Assembly: GCA_039621445.1 (NCBI GenBank)
Contig: CP154954.1
Span: 38,549,703 to 38,613,702, forward strand
Direction: 5' to 3'
Length of the DNA: 64,000 nt
Source: Euglena gracilis
Taxonomy: Eukaryota
This document shows, in pieces, positions 53,769 through 64,000 of the stretch. The notes below the pieces were generated by a model, which made no database searches, had not been told where the DNA came from, and saw only the letters and a list, made by a program, of their open reading frames with translations. Made by a program: the position numbers and the translations under genes. How positions within the stretch are numbered: the first letter of the stretch is position 1; each line of letters starts with the position of its first letter.

Positions 53769-56700
53769 TAAGTTGCCCGGGTCGGGGGATAAGTTTTGGT
53801 TCCAGGGTCTCCGGACCCCCTCTGCCCGGAAGGGAGGCTTGTTCCGGACCCCCCTCCCCCCTTGGGGGGTTGAACCCCCCTGAACAAGACCAACGCTCAC
53901 TTAATGCCCTGCCCCACCCCTGGGAGGGGGTTGTCGGCCAGTGCCAAGTGATTGTATGGAGGGGGCACACAACCAAACAATACGGTACGGTACGGTACCA
54001 AACAATACGGTACGCAGGAGGGGATAAGTGCTCGCCAAATTACCTGGAAATGCTGCAGAAATTGCTTCATAATGGAGATGGCATTTCCCGCTAAATGTGT
54101 CTTGTTTTCTAAGAAAAATGTGCAAGGCACTCGCTTGTATTGCTCTTTGCAAATGAAGTGTTGAAATTTTCACTATTTGATGTTGAGGGCATCAAAATCA
54201 TGCAAGTTCATCCCACCATAGCAAGCTGCAACATGCAGCACATTTGGAAGCATTATTGGGCACTTATATTTTGAATGTTGCTGTAAACTTCCAGGCATAT
54301 GTTGCTTTTATTTCCCTCAGAATATTGGTGTTCATGAGCAAAAGGCCAACGGCCAACTTTAGGGGGGCCAAGTCTGCATGTGAGGAGGAGGGGGCCAAGC
54401 ACCCGGGGGGGGGGGGGGGGGGCAAGCAGAGTAGTCAGGCTGAGGCGTTGTTGCTGTTGTTGTTGCCATCTTTTGCCATCATCTAACAAATGAACACTCT
54501 GGCAGATGACTCATGCCAACCTTGGGAGAAAAAATGGCTTTTGATTGTTCTTTGCAGCAGCATGTGTACATGTGTTAGAGACGGATCAACAGGAAGAGAA
54601 AGGGAAAGGAGAACAAACACACCCAGCGGTCATCACAGTCGATTGCGGTGGCAAACCCGGTGGCGGCAAGCACGATTCCATCAGAAAGCTGGCCGGCGAA
54701 GTAAGAGAACCCGGACTTTGAAGTCACCTGGAAGCGAAAGCAACATGACCATTCTGGCCACAGCTGGGTGTGAGCGGGGGAGGGGGGGGAGGGGAGTGGA
54801 GGAAACGGCAACAGCTGGAGGAAAAATGCCCAAAGATGCTTGAACGCTAGGCCTCTGAAAAAGCGGCAAATCGTCCTCTTTTCTCCCTCCTTCGACCAGT
54901 TCTCATTCAGTATTCAGTCTTTTTTTTACAATTTCCTTGCCAATGTCCCGAGAGATAGTGGATATCTTTCATTCAATGCAAACCTGCCCACAGATATACG
55001 ACTCAGTTCCAGGAGAGCAAGAGCACTGAAAGCAGGGAGGAGGGGGTCAGGTCAACATGGACCCTCAAAAAAAAAACGGTGACACATAAAAAACAAAAAA
55101 ACGCATAAAAAACAATAAAAATAATATAATAAACAATAAAAAACGCAAATTTCAAGTAAAATCTTCCCCGGGATGTACTTTCTTCTGGAAAGGAAAGAAA
55201 AAATTTTCAAATGCTGAAGAAAATTGTTGACAAAAAATGCAAAAACAAAAAAAACTGACAAAAATTTTGGTCTCAGGGGGAAATCAAATCTGAGCGAAAA
55301 TGTCCAAATCGATTTTTGTTTCAGCAGAAAATCAAGAAATCACTAAGGGGAAAAAAGCAAAGGGCCACAAAAGTAATTTTTTGCCAAAACAGTTGGACAC
55401 AAAAAGATGCTAAAAAAAACGCGTTTGTATTTCCCCCTGCTGTAAATTGCTTCAGACCGTCCAAACATTCAGCGCACCCACCTTCTCTTCTCCAAGACAC
55501 ATCAAAGTTCCCGAAATGTGGCGTTGACAAGGGACGGGGTGTGTTTCAACGATGTGGTGTGTCTTGGACAAATTGGGGAAATACCCACCCACCTGCACAT
55601 CCACGCACACAACAGGAATGGATGGTGCATGTGCCTAAATATACCCCCCCCCGGGGCGCTTGGCCTGGGTCATGATTGAAGGAAGGCCAGGGGCAACCTC
55701 ATGGGGGCCAAGTTTGAATGTTGAGAATTTTGGGATCCATGTGCAAAAGGCCGAAGGCCAACTATAACAAGTCCGGGGGGGGCAAGTGCCCCCCCCCCCG
55801 GGCACTTGCCTGGGCGCTTGTCCTCCCTTCGTGCAAATTTGGCCCCTATTTGCACGGAGGGAGGACAAGCGTCCGGGGGCAAATGCCTGCACTGCGTGCA
55901 CCCCACTAGGCACCGCGTGCACCGTACTGCATGGCGCACCGCGTGCACTGCGTCAGAAGAACCATTTCCAAATGTAAAATTTCCACCAGTGCCCCATTTG
56001 TAGTTGACTTCCATTCGCTTTTTTTGTCTGGTTTCCTGCAAATCAGCAACTTTTGGCCTTTTTTGGTCTTTTTTTTGGTCATTTTGGACCACTTTTGGCC
56101 ACTTTTGGCCACTTTTGGCAGCTTTGGGCTGCATTTGGCAATTTAGACTACTTTTCGCTGTTTGAATGCATTTTTGGCTCATTTATATTAATTTAGGCTG
56201 CTTCTGGCCATTTTGCACATTTGTGGTACTGTAGGCCACTTCTCAGTGCTTTTAGGCACCTTTTGCCCATTTTGACCACTTTTGGTCATTTTGTGGCCAC
56301 TTGCACAGATTCAGTGGCCATTGGCACAGACTTGGCGAGATCTGGTGGCAAACCCAGATATTTGGGCCAAAGACAGCAAAAAAAAAATACTCAAAAATCA
56401 TCCAAAATGCTTTTTTATTTCAATTTTGTAATTCATGGGTGGTTTTACGTGTGTTTTTCTCTCATTCAGTCATTTCAGGTGCAACGTGATCCTTGTCACG
56501 CGGTGCCACATGCGGTGAATGCGGTGCTGCATGCCGTGCACGTGGTGCCGCACGCGGTGCGGAAGCATCCCCTGTGCAAGAAGAGGGGGGATGGGTTACG
56601 TTCTGTGAAGCCGGGAGGGAAACCCCGGTTGAGTGGTCGAAATGCCACAGAATGTGGGGCTGGGCACCATAGATCCAGGAAAACCAAGATGCGAAACAAG

Positions 56701-57995
56701 AACGACGGCACCGACAGCAGTCGCAGCAGCAAACCAGCAGGTCTGCCATGATGAGCCCATGCAGCGTATGAGTCGGGTCCCCGTTGATGTGCACCCGTGG
56801 CTGGTAAGCGCTCAGGCCCTCCACCAGTGGCAGGAATGCGACCGGCACTCCGTCCGAGCTGCGGAAGGCAATGGATGGTGAGGATTGGGACAGAGCGGTG
56901 GAGCACTGGAGCGGACTGGAGCACTGGGCACTTGTGGACCCCCTGGGAAGTCCCGTTCAGAGGCTGGAAAATTTGGGCTGACTGCAAAAAGGCTGCTGGC
57001 TGACCCCCCACAGGGGATCCCAGGGCTTGAACTGGCCCAACTGGGGGGTTGGTACCAAAAAAATTAAAACTTCAAAAATGTCCCAAAAAAACTACCAATT
57101 TGCAAAAAAAACCCAAAATTTGACTGACCTGGCCGGCCCATTTTTTTTGGCAGTTTTCATCCCATTTTTTTTTGCACCTACAAAAGCGAAAAAACCATCA
57201 CTGTCCTCGTTGATGGGGGGAGAGAGGTCTGAAAGGCTGGAAAGAGGCTGCTGGTTGGCTGGACCCCCCTGAGGGATCAAATTTTCTTCAGCAACGCCCT
57301 GATGTGCTCACCGCATCACACTGGGCCTGAACCCTCCCCCCCCCAAATGATAAAATGCCCCCCCCCCATGTGGAACGACTTTGGCTGCCCAAATAATAAC
57401 CCAATAGCTGTGAAAGGAAATAGGAGGGAAAATCTGCATGTTGCAAAAATTCGAGTGATAGCCCCACAGTAACCCCCCCCCACTTGTAACCAGGTGTTGA
57501 ATAGTGCTGAGCTCTTGATAAGCGCACCCCCACCACCGACAGTCCGGCCCGGCCCGGCCCGGCCGGCGGCCCGGCCCGGCCCGGCCGGCGGCCCGGCCCG
57601 GCCCGGCCCGGCCCGGCCCAGCCAGCGGCGGGCCGGCGGCCCGGCGGGCCGGCCAGCGGCCCGGCGTCCCAGCGAATCGTTTCGGGCCCCAAAATTTTTT
57701 TCAATTTTTTTCGACTTTTTTGACCCGGGTTTGACCCAAAGTCAATGGGTTGGCGGCTCAGAACGGGGCTCTGGCGGGTTGGTCAACGACGGCTTTTAGC
57801 CATTTCCAACCATTAGCTACCATGGACCAATTGCCTGAGTGGTCAAAGACTATGCTGTTGAAATCAGATATCACTTCGGCAGAGACGAATATAAAACATT
57901 TTGGTGGAAACATTTCACATTAATTCAGGGTTTTCGTTTTTTTTTAACTTGCCTCCTGAGCCCTAAATGCTCTCTAAGCGAATTGTACAGTCAGT

Positions 57996-58067
57996 ATACA
58001 CGTAGCTCAGTGGTAGAGCACTCGGTTCACAAGGTAGCGGTTGTGGGTTCGATCCCCACTGTGTATA
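57996..58067 (+). tRNA. tRNA-Val(CAC)-like gene with unpaired anticodon stem (probable pseudogene or Pol III unit)
   Basis: Acceptor ATACACG/TGTGTAT, D-arm GCTC/GAGC, T-arm GTGGG-TTCGATC-CCCAC, T5 terminator; anticodon stem CTCGG/GGTAG does not pair. Confidence 0.65.
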
Positions 58068-58120
58068 TTTTTGCTGAATTAAAACATACATAGAAGCATA
58101 TGTCATTTCAAACCAAAAAT

Positions 58121-58192
58121 TCATTTTTGAGGGAATCGAACCCACGACCGTTAGATTGTAAGTCGAGTGCTCTACCACTGAGCTATGCACCT
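58121..58192 (-). pseudogene. tRNA-Val(TAC)-like pseudogene convergent with the above
   Basis: A-box TAGCTCAGTGG, B-box GGTTCGATTCC, T5 downstream; acceptor and anticodon stems broken. Confidence 0.65.
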
Positions 58193-58412
58193 CTCTGACA
58201 CATGTTGTCTGAAGGGAAAAATACTAATACATACAGGGAGAATCTTTTTGCATTATTAATATGCAATGAAGGAAATCACACCAATGGAAACAAAAAATTT
58301 TCCGGTCGAATATTGCACGAATATTCGACAATATATTTCACAACATTCGAACGTTCGATTATTTTGAAACATTCGAATATTCGTCGAATATTCGAATGTT
58401 CGAAGCAGCCTT

Positions 58413-59663
58413 AGCAGAAATGCCAAAAATAAAACAATGAAAAGAGAAATGAAAAAAATAAAAAATAAACATAAAAAAAATAAAATTAAAAAAACGTCAC
58501 GTGAAATGATATGACATGTGGGGGGTGTGGGGGGTGTGAGGGGGTGTGTGGGGGGTGTGGGGGGGGGGGGGGGGGGGGGGGGGTGGGGGTGGGGGTAGGT
58601 GTGGGGGGGGGGGGGGTGTGTGGGTGTGGGGGGTGTACCTTGTAGAGACCAATCTAACAACGTTGAGCGGGAAATATTCTGCTGTTTGGACAAGAATCGT
58701 AACCCTGACCCTACTCCTTCAAATAACCTCACAAAATCTTTTTGGCCACAATGAAACACCATCGGGTTCTTTTGCAGAAATCCCAAAAATAAAAGAATGA
58801 AAAGAGAAATGAAAAAAAAAATAAACATAAAAAGAAAAATAAAAATGAAAAGGGTCACGTGAAATGATGTGACATGTGGGGGGTGTGGGGGGTGTGTGGG
58901 GGTGTGGGGTGTGTGGGGGGGTGTGTGGTGTGGGGGGGGGGGTGGGGGTGGGGGGGGGTGTGGGTGTGGGGGGTGGGGGGGGTGGGGGGGGGGGTGTGGG
59001 GGGTGGGGGTGGGTGTGGGGGTGGTGGGGGTGGGGGGGGGGTGTGGGGGGTGTGGGGGGGTGTGGGGGGGTGTGGGGGGGTGGGGGGGTGTGGGGGGGTG
59101 TGGGGGGGGTGTGGGGGGTGTGGGGGGGTCTTGTACAGACCAATCTAACAACGTTGAGCGGGAAATATTCTGCTGTTTGGACAAGGATTGTAACCCTAAC
59201 CCTACTCCTTCAAATAACCTCACAAAATCTTTTTGGCCACAATGAAACACCATCGGGTTCTTTTGCAGAAATGCCAAAAATAAAAGAATGAAAAGAAAAA
59301 TGAAAAAAAATAAAAAATAAACATAAAAACAAAAATAAAAATAAAAAAGGTCACGTGAAATGATGTGACGTGGGGGGTGTGGGGGGGTGTGGGGGGGGTG
59401 TGGGGGGGTGGGGGGGGGTGGGGGGGGGTGTGGGGGTGTGGGGGGTGTGGGGTGGTGTGGGGGGGGGTGGGGGGTAGTACCTTGTTGAGACCAATCTAAC
59501 AACGTTGAGCGGGAAATATTCTGCTGTTTGGACAAGAATCGTAACCCTGACCCTACTCCGTCAAATAACCTCACAAAATCTTTTTGGCCACAATGAAATA
59601 CCATCGGGTTCTTTTGCAGAAATGCCAAAAATAAAAGAATAAAAAAAAAAAAAAAAAAAAAAA

Positions 59664-59706
<43 letters not shown>

Positions 59707-59731
59707 AAAAAAAAAAAAAAAAAAAAAAAAA

Positions 59732-59768
<37 letters not shown>
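58413..59768. repeat. Three to four copies of a ~240-bp block separated by variable G(n)T tracts, ending in a ~125-nt A-run
   Basis: GACCAATCTAACAACGTTGAGCGGG at ~58647, 59138 and 59489. Confidence 0.9.
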
Positions 59769-59769
<1 letters not shown>

Positions 59770-59936
59770 GGGAGAAAAACCCCCCCGCCTGCCCCGCGCC
59801 CTGCCCCCCCTCCCCCTCCCCTCCTCCCCCCCCCTCCACCCCCCCCGGTCCCGTGCCCCTTGCTGTGCCCTGTGGGGGGTGTGGGGTGTTAGGGTGGGGT
59901 TGGGGGGTGTTGTGGGGGGTGTGGTGGGGGGGGGGG

Positions 59937-61565
59937 AAGTCAATGGGTCGGCGGCGCAAAACGGGGCGCCGGCGGGTCGAAAAACGCTCGTTTTCGGCTC
60001 AGAAACAGTTTTTCTGGGTCCGGGAGGCCAAAAAACATCGTTTCGGGCAAAAAAAAATTTTTTCGATTTTTTTCGACTTTTTGGACCCGGTTTTTACCCA
60101 AAGTCAATGGGTCGGCGGCCCAAAACGGGGCGCCGGCGGGTCGAAAAACGCTCGTTTTCGGCTCAAAAACAGTTTTTCTGGGTCCGGGAGGCCAAAAAAC
60201 ATCGTTTCGGGCAAAAAAATTTTTTCGATTTTTTTCGACTTTTTGGACCCGGTTTTGACCCAAAGTCAATGGGTCAGCGGCCCAAAGCGGGGCCCCGGCG
60301 GGTCGAAAAACGCTCGTTTCCGGCTCAAAAACAGTTTTTCCGGGGCCGGGAGGCCAAAAAACATCGTTTCGGGCAAAAAAATTTTTTCGATTTTTTTCGA
60401 CTTTTTGGACCCGGTTTTGACCCAAAGTCAATGGGTCAGCGGCCCAAAGCGGGGCCCCGGCGGTTCGAAAAACGCTCGTTTCCGGCTCAAAAACAGTTTT
60501 TCCGGGTCCGGGAGGCCAGGCCAAAAAACATCGTTTCGGGCAAAAAAAATTTTTTCGATTTTTTTCGACTTTTTTGACCCGGTTTTGACCCAAAGTCAAT
60601 GGGTCGGCGGCCCAGAACGGGGCGCCGGCGGGTCGAAAAACGCTCGTTTTCGGCTCAAAAACCAGTTTTTTTTCCGGTTCCTGTAGCGCAAAAAACATCG
60701 TTTCGGGCAAAAAATTTTTTCGATTTTTTCAACTTTTTGGACCCGGTTTTGACCCAAAGTCAATGGGTCGGCGGCCAGAACAGAACGGGGCGACGGCGGG
60801 TTCGAGAAAAACGCTCGTTTCGGGCAAAAAAATTTTTTTCGATTTTTTTTCGACTTTTTTGACCCGGTTTTGACCCATAGTCAATGGGTCGGCGGCCCAG
60901 AACGGGGCGCCGGCGGGTCGAAAAACGCTCGTTTTCGGCTCAAAAACAGTTTTTCTGGGTCCGGGAGGCCAAAAAACATCGTTTCGGGCAAAAAAATTTT
61001 TTCGATTTTTTTCGACTTTTTTGACCCGGTTTTGACCCAAAGTCAATGGGTCAGCGGCCCAAAACGGGGCACCGGTGGGGCGAAAAACGCTCGTCTTCGG
61101 CTCAAAAGCAGTTTTTCTGGGTCCAGGAGGCCAAAAAACATCGTAAAAAAAAAAAAAAATTTTTTCGATTTTTTTCGACTTTTTTGACCCGGTTTTGAGC
61201 CAAAGTCAATGGGTCGGCGGCCCAAAACGGGGCACCGGTGGGGCGAAAAACGCTCGTTTTCGGCTCAAAAGCAGTTTTTCTGGGTCCAGGAGGCCAAAAA
61301 ACATCGTTTCGGGCAAAAAAAAATTTTTCGATTTTTTTCGACTTTTTTGACCCGGTTTTGAGCCAAAGTCAATGGGTCGGCGGCCCAAAACGGGGCACCG
61401 GTGGGGCGAAAAACGCTCGTTTTCGGCTCAAAAGCAGTTTTTCTGGGTCCAGGAGACCAAAAAACATCGTTTCGGGCAAAAAAAATTTTTTTGACTTTTT
61501 TCGACTTGACCCAAAATCAATGGGTCGGCGGCCCAAAACGGGGCGCCGGCGGGTCGAAAAACGCT
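59937..61565. repeat. Tandem satellite, ~163-bp unit, ~10 copies (orphan partial unit at 57677-57790)
   Basis: AGTCAATGGGTC recurs near 59937, 60101, 60263, 60425, 60593, 60757, 60879, 61041, 61203 and 61366, with a variant near 61515. Confidence 0.95.
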
Positions 61566-61587
61566 TGCAATGAGTACATCAGTCATC

Positions 61588-61669
61588 GGTCAGTTGGTCA
61601 AGTGGCTAAAGACACCAGCTGCAAATGCTGGTCCTCTACGGGGGCGTGGGTTCGAACCCGCACTGATCG
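61588..61669 (+). tRNA. tRNA-Leu(CAA)-like gene, atypical (G at position 33, T-arm one nt short)
   Basis: Acceptor GGTCAGT/ACTGATC, anticodon arm CCAGC-TGCAAAT-GCTGG, long variable arm, GGTTCGAACC, T5 terminator. Confidence 0.65.
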
Positions 61670-61714
61670 TTTTTCTGTATGAGAATGGCCAGAAATGGCC
61701 CAAATTGGCCAAAA

Positions 61715-62075
61715 AACGCCCGTATCTCGGGCTGGGCGGGGAGTTGCGGGGAAATCAAAATACCGGTAGATAGAGCGTTCCAAGGGCTTCAATTCAGGTC
61801 TCCGGACATTTCCTTTGATTTTGCATCATTTTGGAGAAATTTTGAAAACATCGATTTTTTGACCCCCCACCCCCCGAAAACGGCTAAGTCGAACAGTGGG
61901 AAAAGTGTACAAAACGGCCGTCCGGGCCGAAAACGGCCGTATCTCGGGCTAGGCGGGGAGTTGCGGGGAAATCAAAATACCGGTAGATGGGGCGTTCCAA
62001 GGGCTTCAAATTAGGTCTCCGGACATTTCCTTTGGTTTGGCTTCATTTTGGAGATATTTTGAAAATTGACATTTT
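61715..62075. repeat. Two direct copies (~217-bp period) of a CCGTATCTCGGGCT... repeat
   Basis: 61720 and 61937 align over ~130 bp; a third partial copy at ~62146. Confidence 0.8.
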
Positions 62076-64000
62076 GAGGGGGGGGGGGCTCATCCAGGGG
62101 GGGCGGGTAAATCCTACCGAGTTTGGACCCCTTCGCGCGTGAATAACTCGGGCCTGGCGGGGAGTTGGGGGTCAAACCCAGGTGATTCGGAAACTAGGAA
62201 TCCAGTCGCTCGCGACTGAAAAAAAAAATTTCGGGAACCGGGCCGGGATCATGGTGATAATCCGTCGGTTCTCCAGGTGGCCCCGACCGGGGGGGGGGGG
62301 GGGCGGGGGGGGGCTGGACGGGGGGGGGGATTTCGACGGTGGTAAGCTTCGCTCTTACCCATAAAGGGATAAGAGCTCAGCGACCCCCCACCTATAAACC
62401 CCCCCCACTTATAAACCCCCCAGGCCGACCAACCAAAACGGGACCTATAACCCCCCCCCCCCTGGGGAAGAAAAATGAAAACTGCCGGAAATCTTTTTCG
62501 GCTGCAAACCACTCAAAAACTGATTTTTGGCAATTTTTTGAGACCGACCATCATCAAAAATGCCATTTTTGTCCAAACTTGCCAAAATTGTCAATTTGGG
62601 GGGGTTCATTTCTGGGGGGCGGATTTTCACCAACAATTCCGGGAACTATACCCCCCCCTTCGGCCGACCAACCAAACCGGATCCTATGAACCCCGGGGGG
62701 TTTACAAGTGGGGGGATTTACACCACAGTACCCCACCCCCCACCCACACACCACAGTGCCCCACACATGAAAAACATCTTTTTTGACTCACTAGGCATCA
62801 TTTTTTGACTGACTCGGCCTTCGGCCTCGTCCAGGGGGCTCCCCGGACCCCCCCATAACCAAAGTAAGAAGGTCCTTTCTGTGCAGCTGGGGGCATCCAA
62901 CAACTAATGTTTTAGGACACCCCCAACTCCCCCACACCCCCCACCCCCCACACACATCCCACACATTCCCTCACACACCCCTCCACCCCCACACATACCT
63001 CCCACAGTACCCCACACTTAAGTGTGGGGGCTCCACTTTATACCATTGGTGAAAGATTCACAAAAAAATGGAAATTTGCGCAGAAGATATGCCAACAAGA
63101 GCGTCCATTTTTAATATAAAAAAAACCTAACAATCTCCCCCCCCCCCAATATAAAGCACCCCCAGGGGGTTTGGTTTTGCTGCCCAAATATAATCCGATT
63201 TTGAGTGCGCAATAAACTGGGGGTTCATTATCTGGGGGAAGGTTAACACACCCATCGTACTGGGTGTCCAAAAATTTACCTGGCCATGTTTCCTGTCTCG
63301 CCCATCAACTTTCACTTGCATTGTACTCTACTCCCTTGTATTGGCCAAAAACAAACTCTTTTTGGGGGGGGGGCTTTATATTTGGGGGAAAATCAACTGG
63401 GTGGGCTTTAAAAATGTTGGTAGCTTTCCACCAGTCAACTAGCATTCTTATGCCAAATTTTGGTTACCAACCTCCTATTTTCCCCGAAATGTGCAATTGT
63501 AACCCAAAATGGAGCATTTCTGGTGAAAAAAAATGCATCCACCCAAAAAGTTTTCTGCTTTTTCCGGAATGGTATCATCGTCTGGATCAATATCAAGAGG
63601 GGGGGGCACCAAACCCAAGATGGTCCAAGGGCTTTGCCCTTGGGGGCAGGCATTTGCTTAAGGACCCCGGGGGGGGGGGTACTGGCTAGCCAATCGGCTA
63701 GACACTGAAAATAAGGACTAGCTAGAACCCCCCCCTGGGGGGGGGGGGGTCCGGGGGTTCCCCGAACTGGAAAAATGAGGTTTTTAATAGGTTTTTGGCT
63801 GATTTTGTTCCAAAAATTCCCAAAAATGGCTAAAAAAAACGGGCATTTTTGGCCATTTTTGGAGGTCCACAAAAAAATTTTCGGCACTTCGCGCCGGTCA
63901 CTGGAAAAAAAATTCCACTAGCTAGCCCTGCTAGCAGACCCCGGGGGGGGGGGTCTGCTAGCCACTAGCCAAATTTGGACTAGCTGCAGTCCAGCCCCCC

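Follow-up and report, generated by a model that had tools for sequence, protein, structure and literature searches.

Euglena gracilis carries a very abundant mobile family that lacks genes in most of its copies, and one such gene-less copy occupies positions 57490-62383 of the 64,000-nucleotide stretch analysed here (assembly GCA_039621445.1, contig CP154954.1, forward-strand positions 38,549,703 to 38,613,702; hereafter the window). The element has short subterminal inverted repeats, inserts at GG^T (the caret marks the insertion point) without a target site duplication (TSD) and is likely mobilised in trans by a RepHel protein of the HLE2 (Helitron2-like) type, a reading to which we give a probability of roughly 0.92. 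An initial annotation made from the window sequence had described a composite element enclosed by 11-bp repeats, and had suggested a non-autonomous Helitron2/Helentron that spreads a satellite cassette flanked by RNA polymerase III (Pol III) units. The Helitron2/Helentron part of that proposal has gained support from the pairing of the ends, from an empty insertion site and from a RepHel partner with shared subterminal repeats. The cassette has to be given up as the defining unit: 9 of 22 complete copies are without any ARAGORN call, the 163-bp satellite derives from the 5' region of autonomous copies, and the tRNA-like pair belongs to a minor subfamily.

Element boundaries and abundance

The element is 4894 bp long and lies on the minus strand, an orientation set by its long relatives, in which the RepHel frame starts from the hairpin end. 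From end to end it reads 5'-TC (at 62383), repeat, hairpin, interior, repeat and a last 16 nt that close with CCTGG-3' (at 57490). Because GGT occurs at both ends, the junction can be slid by up to 3 bp. The 11-bp repeats are present as initially annotated, but they are not the boundaries: they lie 2 nt inside the 5' end and 16 nt inside the 3' end, and homology among copies continues 16 bp beyond them on the left and 2 bp on the right. Within the window, the 11-mer has these two exact copies only, with three matches at no more than one mismatch against 0.49 expected. The predicted fold of the right repeat was confirmed (-13.5 kcal/mol, z -4.8), and the hairpin variants CCC/GGG, CTC/GAG and ATCC/GGAT all preserve the stem through paired changes. 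A left hairpin proposed at 57481-57496 is half flank and half element, with a folding energy of -1.8 kcal/mol (z -0.09) that 95 of 200 shuffles equalled; its flank half changes between copies, and it is a chance fold across the junction and not a terminal structure. The 3' subterminal repeat takes part in a weak overlapping fold only (z -1.8).

The genome searched comprises 2.37 Gb on 46 contigs. The exact right-end 33-mer occurs 6,561 times, the exact left-end 34-mer 1,852 times, and a 5' 16-mer common to all right-end variants 22,041 times; each reversed control gave 0. With more than 22,000 5' ends, the family makes up a sizeable share of the genome (~2.4 Gb), spreads satellite arrays and causes false tRNA gene calls. 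Pairing of the ends was sampled in the 10 kb next to 20 right ends out of 40 listed; two of these were picked for a left end listed nearby, and the other 18 ranked highest once the window's own was set aside. A left end was found within 10 kb at 18/18 unselected loci and at both picked ones, so that the co-occurrence of the ends with different flanks, a check proposed with the initial annotation, is borne out. In total, 22 complete copies including the window's were obtained, 1,758-5,284 bp long, with unrelated flanks and on many contigs. In a reverse check on nine left ends, selected for the absence of an exact right-end match nearby, six had a paired right end within 9 kb. One copy (L053, G000:C10:18428000-18437999) has an unrelated, low-complexity stretch of 3.5 kb immediately internal to its 3' end, which may have been captured.

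Insertion site and target preference

The element was inserted, without target duplication, into a TA-flanked inverted-repeat element of the miniature inverted-repeat transposable element (MITE) kind. This host is ~350 bp long and has 3,031 candidates in the genome, and the uninterrupted copies called for by the initial annotation were found at 81-90% identity. An empty paralogue of the locus (G000:C1:40698312-40698801) reads through the junction and confirms the split. Its flanks align at 95% over 1.5 kb on the left and 91% over 1.3 kb on the right, and the sequence is continuous across the junction, with a difference of two C in a homopolymer; it reads GTAA and one C-run, without element ends. 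The absence of a TSD also held, since no duplication abuts both junctions in any of the complete copies (length 0 in 22/22). A 14-17-bp TSD suggested by similar flanks was rejected, as the similar stretches represent two monomers of the terminal repeat of the host MITE.

In local samples, GG directly precedes 46 of 47 5' ends and T directly follows 70 of 72 3' ends. Genome-wide counts, which are free of query bias, place GGGG before 13,738 (62%) of the 22,041 5' ends and CCTGG, the 3' end of another copy, before 5,358 (24%); the remaining 2,945 have other preceding sequence. When the stacked ends are excluded, GGGG stands before 82% of the 5' ends, compared with 1.5% of the T positions in the window and fetched loci, which served as background. 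The target is GG^T, the element being inserted between GG and T. The T-rich target, which the initial annotation had already noted as not seen, is absent because the target is a G-run. Published HLE2 targets are TT, TTTT^T/C or TNAT^T (PMC11417382, PMC4067079, PMC3627910, PMC5148889, PMC7492417). No description of a G-run Helitron target stood out in the literature surveyed at title and abstract level; Repbase lay outside this search and could bear on the claim.

Head-to-tail joints between copies contain a single GGT, which fits, but does not prove, a circular intermediate or replicative transposition. In one stack of six units (986-1,823 bp, 88-98% identical), two alternating pairs are closest, a pattern that fits serial insertion with later duplication. 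Seemingly doubled 55-bp 3' ends at six loci (L045, L046, L048, L058, L129, L135) are nested insertions, which sit at a G-run^T site 55 bp before the sister subfamilies' own 3' end. With intact transposases and thousands of junctions, this is a well-measured Helitron2-type family that would nick at GG^T instead of T^T, and it allows direct tests of how Helitrons choose their targets and of why copies stack head to tail. Annotation rules that expect TT flanks with a 3' stem-loop would set its ends in the wrong place.

Autonomous partner and class assignment

The Helitron_like_N profile has 172 matches in the genome, some in frames of up to 2,889 codons. Seven Rep loci of the DUF6570 group were fetched among many listed, six with an intact long frame and one broken. 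At four of the six intact loci, both subterminal repeats flank a frame of 2,726-2,889 codons in elements of 14.4-15.7 kb, which supplies the Rep/helicase frame between the same termini that the initial annotation had proposed to look for; of the other two, one has a degenerate 3' end and one no visible 5' end. Pfam comparison of two proteins identified zf-C2H2 zinc fingers, DUF6570, Helitron_like_N (Rep), PIF1 helicase and OTU, the last below cut-off in one of them, and no match to apurinic/apyrimidinic (AP) endonuclease at E <=0.01 in either. All six proteins retain the HUH motif (RGSLHGH), YxxxYxxK, Walker A and the cysteine motif of OTU in intact form, and dN/dS of 0.15-0.20 in 15/15 pairs shows purifying selection. 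A full protein scan returned 2,163 homologues at E <=0.001, compared with only 2 from a word-indexed search; the 12 top homologues scanned all contain DUF6570.

The window copy and the 5' region of the autonomous copies have three pieces in common, which follow in the same order in 4/4 comparisons: the opening 95 bp, then the 217-bp repeat, then the 163-bp repeat. By the sequence criteria of PMC4067079, the window copy is of the same family as the autonomous copies and of a different subfamily. The partner is therefore assigned through shared repeats and not through identical ends, and mobilisation in trans by RepHel is likely. DUF6570 is a published marker of HLE2 (PMC11417382), and a serine in Rep motif 2 is a marker of the Helentron side, or HLE2 (PMC4067079). 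On these markers the family would be filed as a variant within HLE2: its repeats are short, asymmetric and subterminal, the 5' hairpin includes one of them, there is no TSD, and the partner is a RepHel with DUF6570 and the motif-2 serine. It lacks the 3' hairpin after the 3' repeat of a strict Helitron2 in the sense of Bao and Jurka, and the AP endonuclease fused to RepHel of a strict Helentron. It shows the HLE1 end signature of 5'-TC and CTRR-3' (TC...CTGG), but not the A^T target, the 3' hairpin, the lack of inverted repeats or the L in Rep motif 2 of that group. Repeats at the very ends and a TSD, as in MITEs and other elements with terminal inverted repeats (TIRs), are also lacking.

Several observations weigh against the HLE2 reading. 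No separate hairpin was found by folding downstream of the 3' repeat, and the TT or TTTT^T/C target, which is usual for Helitron2/Helentron if not universal, does not occur. Three of the nine selected left ends have no paired 5' end within 9 kb. The sample of seven Rep loci is small, and the window copy differs from the six autonomous copies in the 5' hairpin loop and the last 16-17 nt.

Autonomous copies, L089 among them, have 2-3.5-kb tandem arrays between the RepHel stop and the 3' end that differ among copies, and the N-terminal part of RepHel contains a variable-copy Gly/Ala-rich repeat. The genome also has a second, HLE1-type Helitron with the motif RGLPHAH, whose frame is split into several open reading frames (ORFs), perhaps by introns; it is located at L120 (G000:C27:40006000-40015999) and in clusters on C2, C3, C16, C29 and C35 with ~10-25-kb spacing. 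The Replitron profile PF21859 had no genome match, but a control profile also matched nowhere. No description of HLE2 in euglenids stood out in the literature surveyed (titles and abstract starts, without subscription journals and supplements).

tRNA-like cargo

The three or four tRNA-like units of the initial annotation were recovered as three above the Rfam tRNA gathering score, two of which are called by ARAGORN, and a fourth partial stretch recognised by eye, which we take to be Ser-like. None of this amounts to a functional cloverleaf: units 1 and 2 pair 2/5 and 3/5 positions of the anticodon stem, compared with 5/5 in 3/3 plastid tRNA clusters. Unit 3 is tandemly repeated four-fold at L045 and L046. 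The tRNA-like units mark a young, minor subfamily, in which the unique region is 97.6-100% identical among copies. Two rough estimates put its size at ~80-130 copies, one from 12 facing A-box pairs on contigs C1-C4 (~361 Mb) and the other from the subfamily's diagnostic base in 7 of the first 100 left ends. RNA reads on 57790-58420 numbered 7, 1, 2 and 0 in four runs (10 in ~46 million records); the libraries were 150-nt and would lose tRNA-sized RNA, and the zero-read run is no test.

The origin of the units was sought in several places. In autonomous copies, relaxed ARAGORN gave 27 scattered calls over 7 loci, none of which matched the window's units in BLASTN. No donor of the tRNA-like pair was found among the 30 best loci, of which 26 have an element 3' end within 550 bp and all 30 a G-tract unit; 20 other A-box loci yielded three close matches, all of them element copies. 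A different tRNA-like stretch is found in a further subfamily, L042; it is 77-91% like loci mostly without HLE2 ends, one of which contains five tRNA-like units. Decayed tRNA-like units are common among the repeats of this genome, and the straightforward reading is that the units were captured from that pool. Among 15 non-plastid clusters, 12 have a B box of at least 6/7 and one has a complete anticodon stem, the B-box count being inflated by the use of the A box as query and by scoring the B box at the best of 14 offsets. In the literature surveyed (titles and abstract starts; Repbase not covered), no paper stood out as describing a Helitron with tRNA-like cargo.

The A-box/D-arm 18-mer has 543 exact copies in the genome, many in repeat-borne tRNA-like units (L194-L215, L035, L042) that end in a T-run, have anticodon arms that vary or are broken, and often form groups of two to five. 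Near-identical plastid-type DNA, with the rpoC2 end, trnV-trnN-trnR-trnL, a split rps11, rps4 and a second tRNA cluster, was listed at 28 places within the first 1.75 Mb of C1 (G000:C1:74152-1748441, L166-L193). It reflects either misassembly of plastid reads or a recent, large insertion into the nuclear genome; the split rps11 fits a euglenid host.

Interior modules

The family has a backbone of ~2 kb, in which the ends are combined with a variable array of 163-bp monomers and with the 217-bp pair. Additional modules of the window subfamily are (GGCCC)n, the two tRNA-like units that face each other, between one and three G-tract units, and the third tRNA-like unit. All modules named in the initial annotation were found again (Table 1). 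Elsewhere in the window, 55801-55887 forms a long imperfect hairpin with sub-threshold Rfam matches.

Table 1. Features of the element and its insertion site, in window coordinates
Feature	Position	Strand	Basis or remark
Host MITE, left end (flank, outside the element)	57470..57489	+	Empty-site comparison
Whole non-autonomous element, assigned to HLE2 type	57490..62383	-	Homology boundaries, empty site, RepHel ORF orientation
3' terminal 16 nt ending in CCTGG, then target T	57490..57505	-	T next in 70/72 ends
3' subterminal inverted repeat	57506..57516	-	16 nt from 3' end; weak overlapping fold
(GGCCC)n microsatellite	57544..57665		Related runs in autonomous copies
Isolated partial monomer of the 163-bp repeat	57669..57790	+	Sequence comparison
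Partial tRNA-like stretch, presumably Ser, without B box	57824..57870	+	By eye; no Rfam or ARAGORN match
tRNA-like unit 1	57996..58067	+	Rfam 48.3 bits; A and B boxes preserved; pairing 7/7 in the acceptor stem, 5/5 in the T stem and 2/5 in the anticodon stem; followed by a T-run
tRNA-like unit 2, facing unit 1	58129..58185	-	Rfam 39.7 bits; both boxes preserved, 3/5 pairs in the anticodon stem, acceptor stem without its 3' strand
Three A-rich/G-tract/145-bp units and poly-A run	58418..59768		Unit number variable among copies
162-163-bp tandem array, 11 monomer starts	59937..61565	+	74-95% like autonomous 5'-region repeats
tRNA-like unit 3	61588..61669	+	Rfam 40 bits; long variable arm, non-canonical anticodon loop
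217-bp repeat pair	61700..62070	+	Located by markers at 61721 and 61938; similarity to the autonomous 5' region 69-76%
5' hairpin including the subterminal repeat	62346..62381	-	z -4.8; stem kept in variants
5' subterminal inverted repeat, 11 bp	62371..62381	-	2 nt from 5' end; identical in autonomous copies
Host MITE, remainder	62384..62720	+	3031 candidates; uninterrupted copies 81-90% identical

Proposed mechanism and alternative explanations

By analogy with Helraiser (PMC5876387), the HUH Rep would nick the G^T junction at the 5' end, the Pif1 domain would peel off one strand, the 3' end would be joined to the 5' end to give a circle, and integration at GG^T would proceed through the circle junction CCTGG^TC. 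GG^T stands at both element junctions, in the target and in the predicted circle junction, and one nicking specificity would serve donor, circle and target; for the same reason a copy's own 3' end would also be a target, giving head-to-tail stacks. The 163-bp and 217-bp repeats are inherited from the autonomous 5' region, whereas the tRNA-like and G-tract units were most likely picked up as passengers and multiplied in a single recent burst. A role of G-quadruplexes in targeting is speculation.

Other explanations of the block were considered. A cut-and-paste, MITE-like element with the 11-bp repeats as true TIRs could draw on the ACC/GGT found at both junctions, which makes a 3-bp ACC TSD formally possible; it is nevertheless very improbable, given repeats set 2 and 16 nt inside the homology boundary, an empty site that has GTAA and one C-run without element ends, the single GGT at head-to-tail joints, and long elements with these ends that encode RepHel and not a DDE transposase. 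Only slightly less improbable is movement by another enzyme of the genome, such as the HLE1-type Helitron, whose Rep (RGLPHAH) exists in tandem clusters and with whose Helitron1 signature the 5'-TC and CTGG-3' ends agree. HLE1 targets A^T and depends on a 3' hairpin (PMC11417382), whereas the element family has G^T, subterminal repeats and 5' modules in common with the DUF6570 RepHel. The long homopolymer tracts of the block look error-prone and might suggest an assembly artefact, or a segmental duplication, in place of a mobile unit; sharp ends, unrelated flanks on many contigs and the empty paralogue leave this practically no likelihood.

A different kind of alternative accepts the same transposon and holds that its tRNA-like A/B boxes are selected, binding TFIIIC/Pol III to shield or open chromatin. 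Three units retain both boxes despite broken anticodon arms, a second subfamily (L042) has acquired a different tRNA-like stretch also found away from HLE2 ends, and B boxes look better preserved than anticodon stems in the non-plastid clusters. Against this, the tRNA subfamily accounts for less than 1% of 5' ends, which shows that spread does not depend on the boxes; its copies are too young, at their level of identity, to show selection; the B-box count is inflated by the scoring; and there are the ten reads. Such selection is unlikely, if the least improbable of these alternatives. More doubtful again is a wider proposal, that unrelated transposons, this Helitron2 lineage included, repeatedly acquire tRNA-derived A/B-box modules as TFIIIC/Pol III landing pads against silencing, combined here with a transposase that reads G-runs, perhaps as G-quadruplex-prone single strands via Pif1.

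Comparison with known systems

The family, read as an HLE2 variant, is close in layout to Helitron2 (Bao and Jurka 2013, PMC3627910), which likewise has asymmetric repeats of 8-15 bp, the 5' one placed 0-2 bp from the end in a 5' hairpin, a 5' T, a single RepHel ORF without endonuclease, and no TSD in most copies. The target there is TTTT^T/C, compared with GGGG^T in the Euglena gracilis family, and the 3' repeat lies ~20-30 bp from the end and is followed by a hairpin, compared with 16 bp and no such hairpin here. The DINE-1/HINE Helentrons (Thomas et al. 2014, PMC4067079) and the oyster Cg_HINE (PMC7492417) share subterminal repeats with an inverted repeat nested with the 5' one, a microsatellite, central tandem arrays, insertion into other repeats without TSD, and non-autonomous copies that far outnumber autonomous ones; they differ in their TT or T-rich target, 3' stem-loop and AP endonuclease partners. 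Fusarium FoHeli3-5 (PMC5148889) resemble the family in asymmetric repeats, a 5' hairpin without a 3' hairpin, and self-insertion that doubles the termini. Their end sequences are different, their copy number is low, and they are reported without an established target preference.

Paramecium Helitrons (PMC13085455) also have a non-TT target, satellite-rich interiors and ORF-less derivatives. They form a separate clade that inserts into telomeric C4A2 repeats at chromosome ends, whereas the Euglena gracilis family is dispersed and has the G-run 5' of the element. For the tRNA-like cargo, a parallel is offered by Helenus/TRIMp3 (PMC10886601), a mobile element other than a short interspersed nuclear element (SINE) that carries tRNA-derived sequence for which a functional tRNA is unlikely. 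It is a long terminal repeat (LTR) retroelement, to which a Pol III promoter could be of use, unlike a rolling-circle element, which has no evident need of one.

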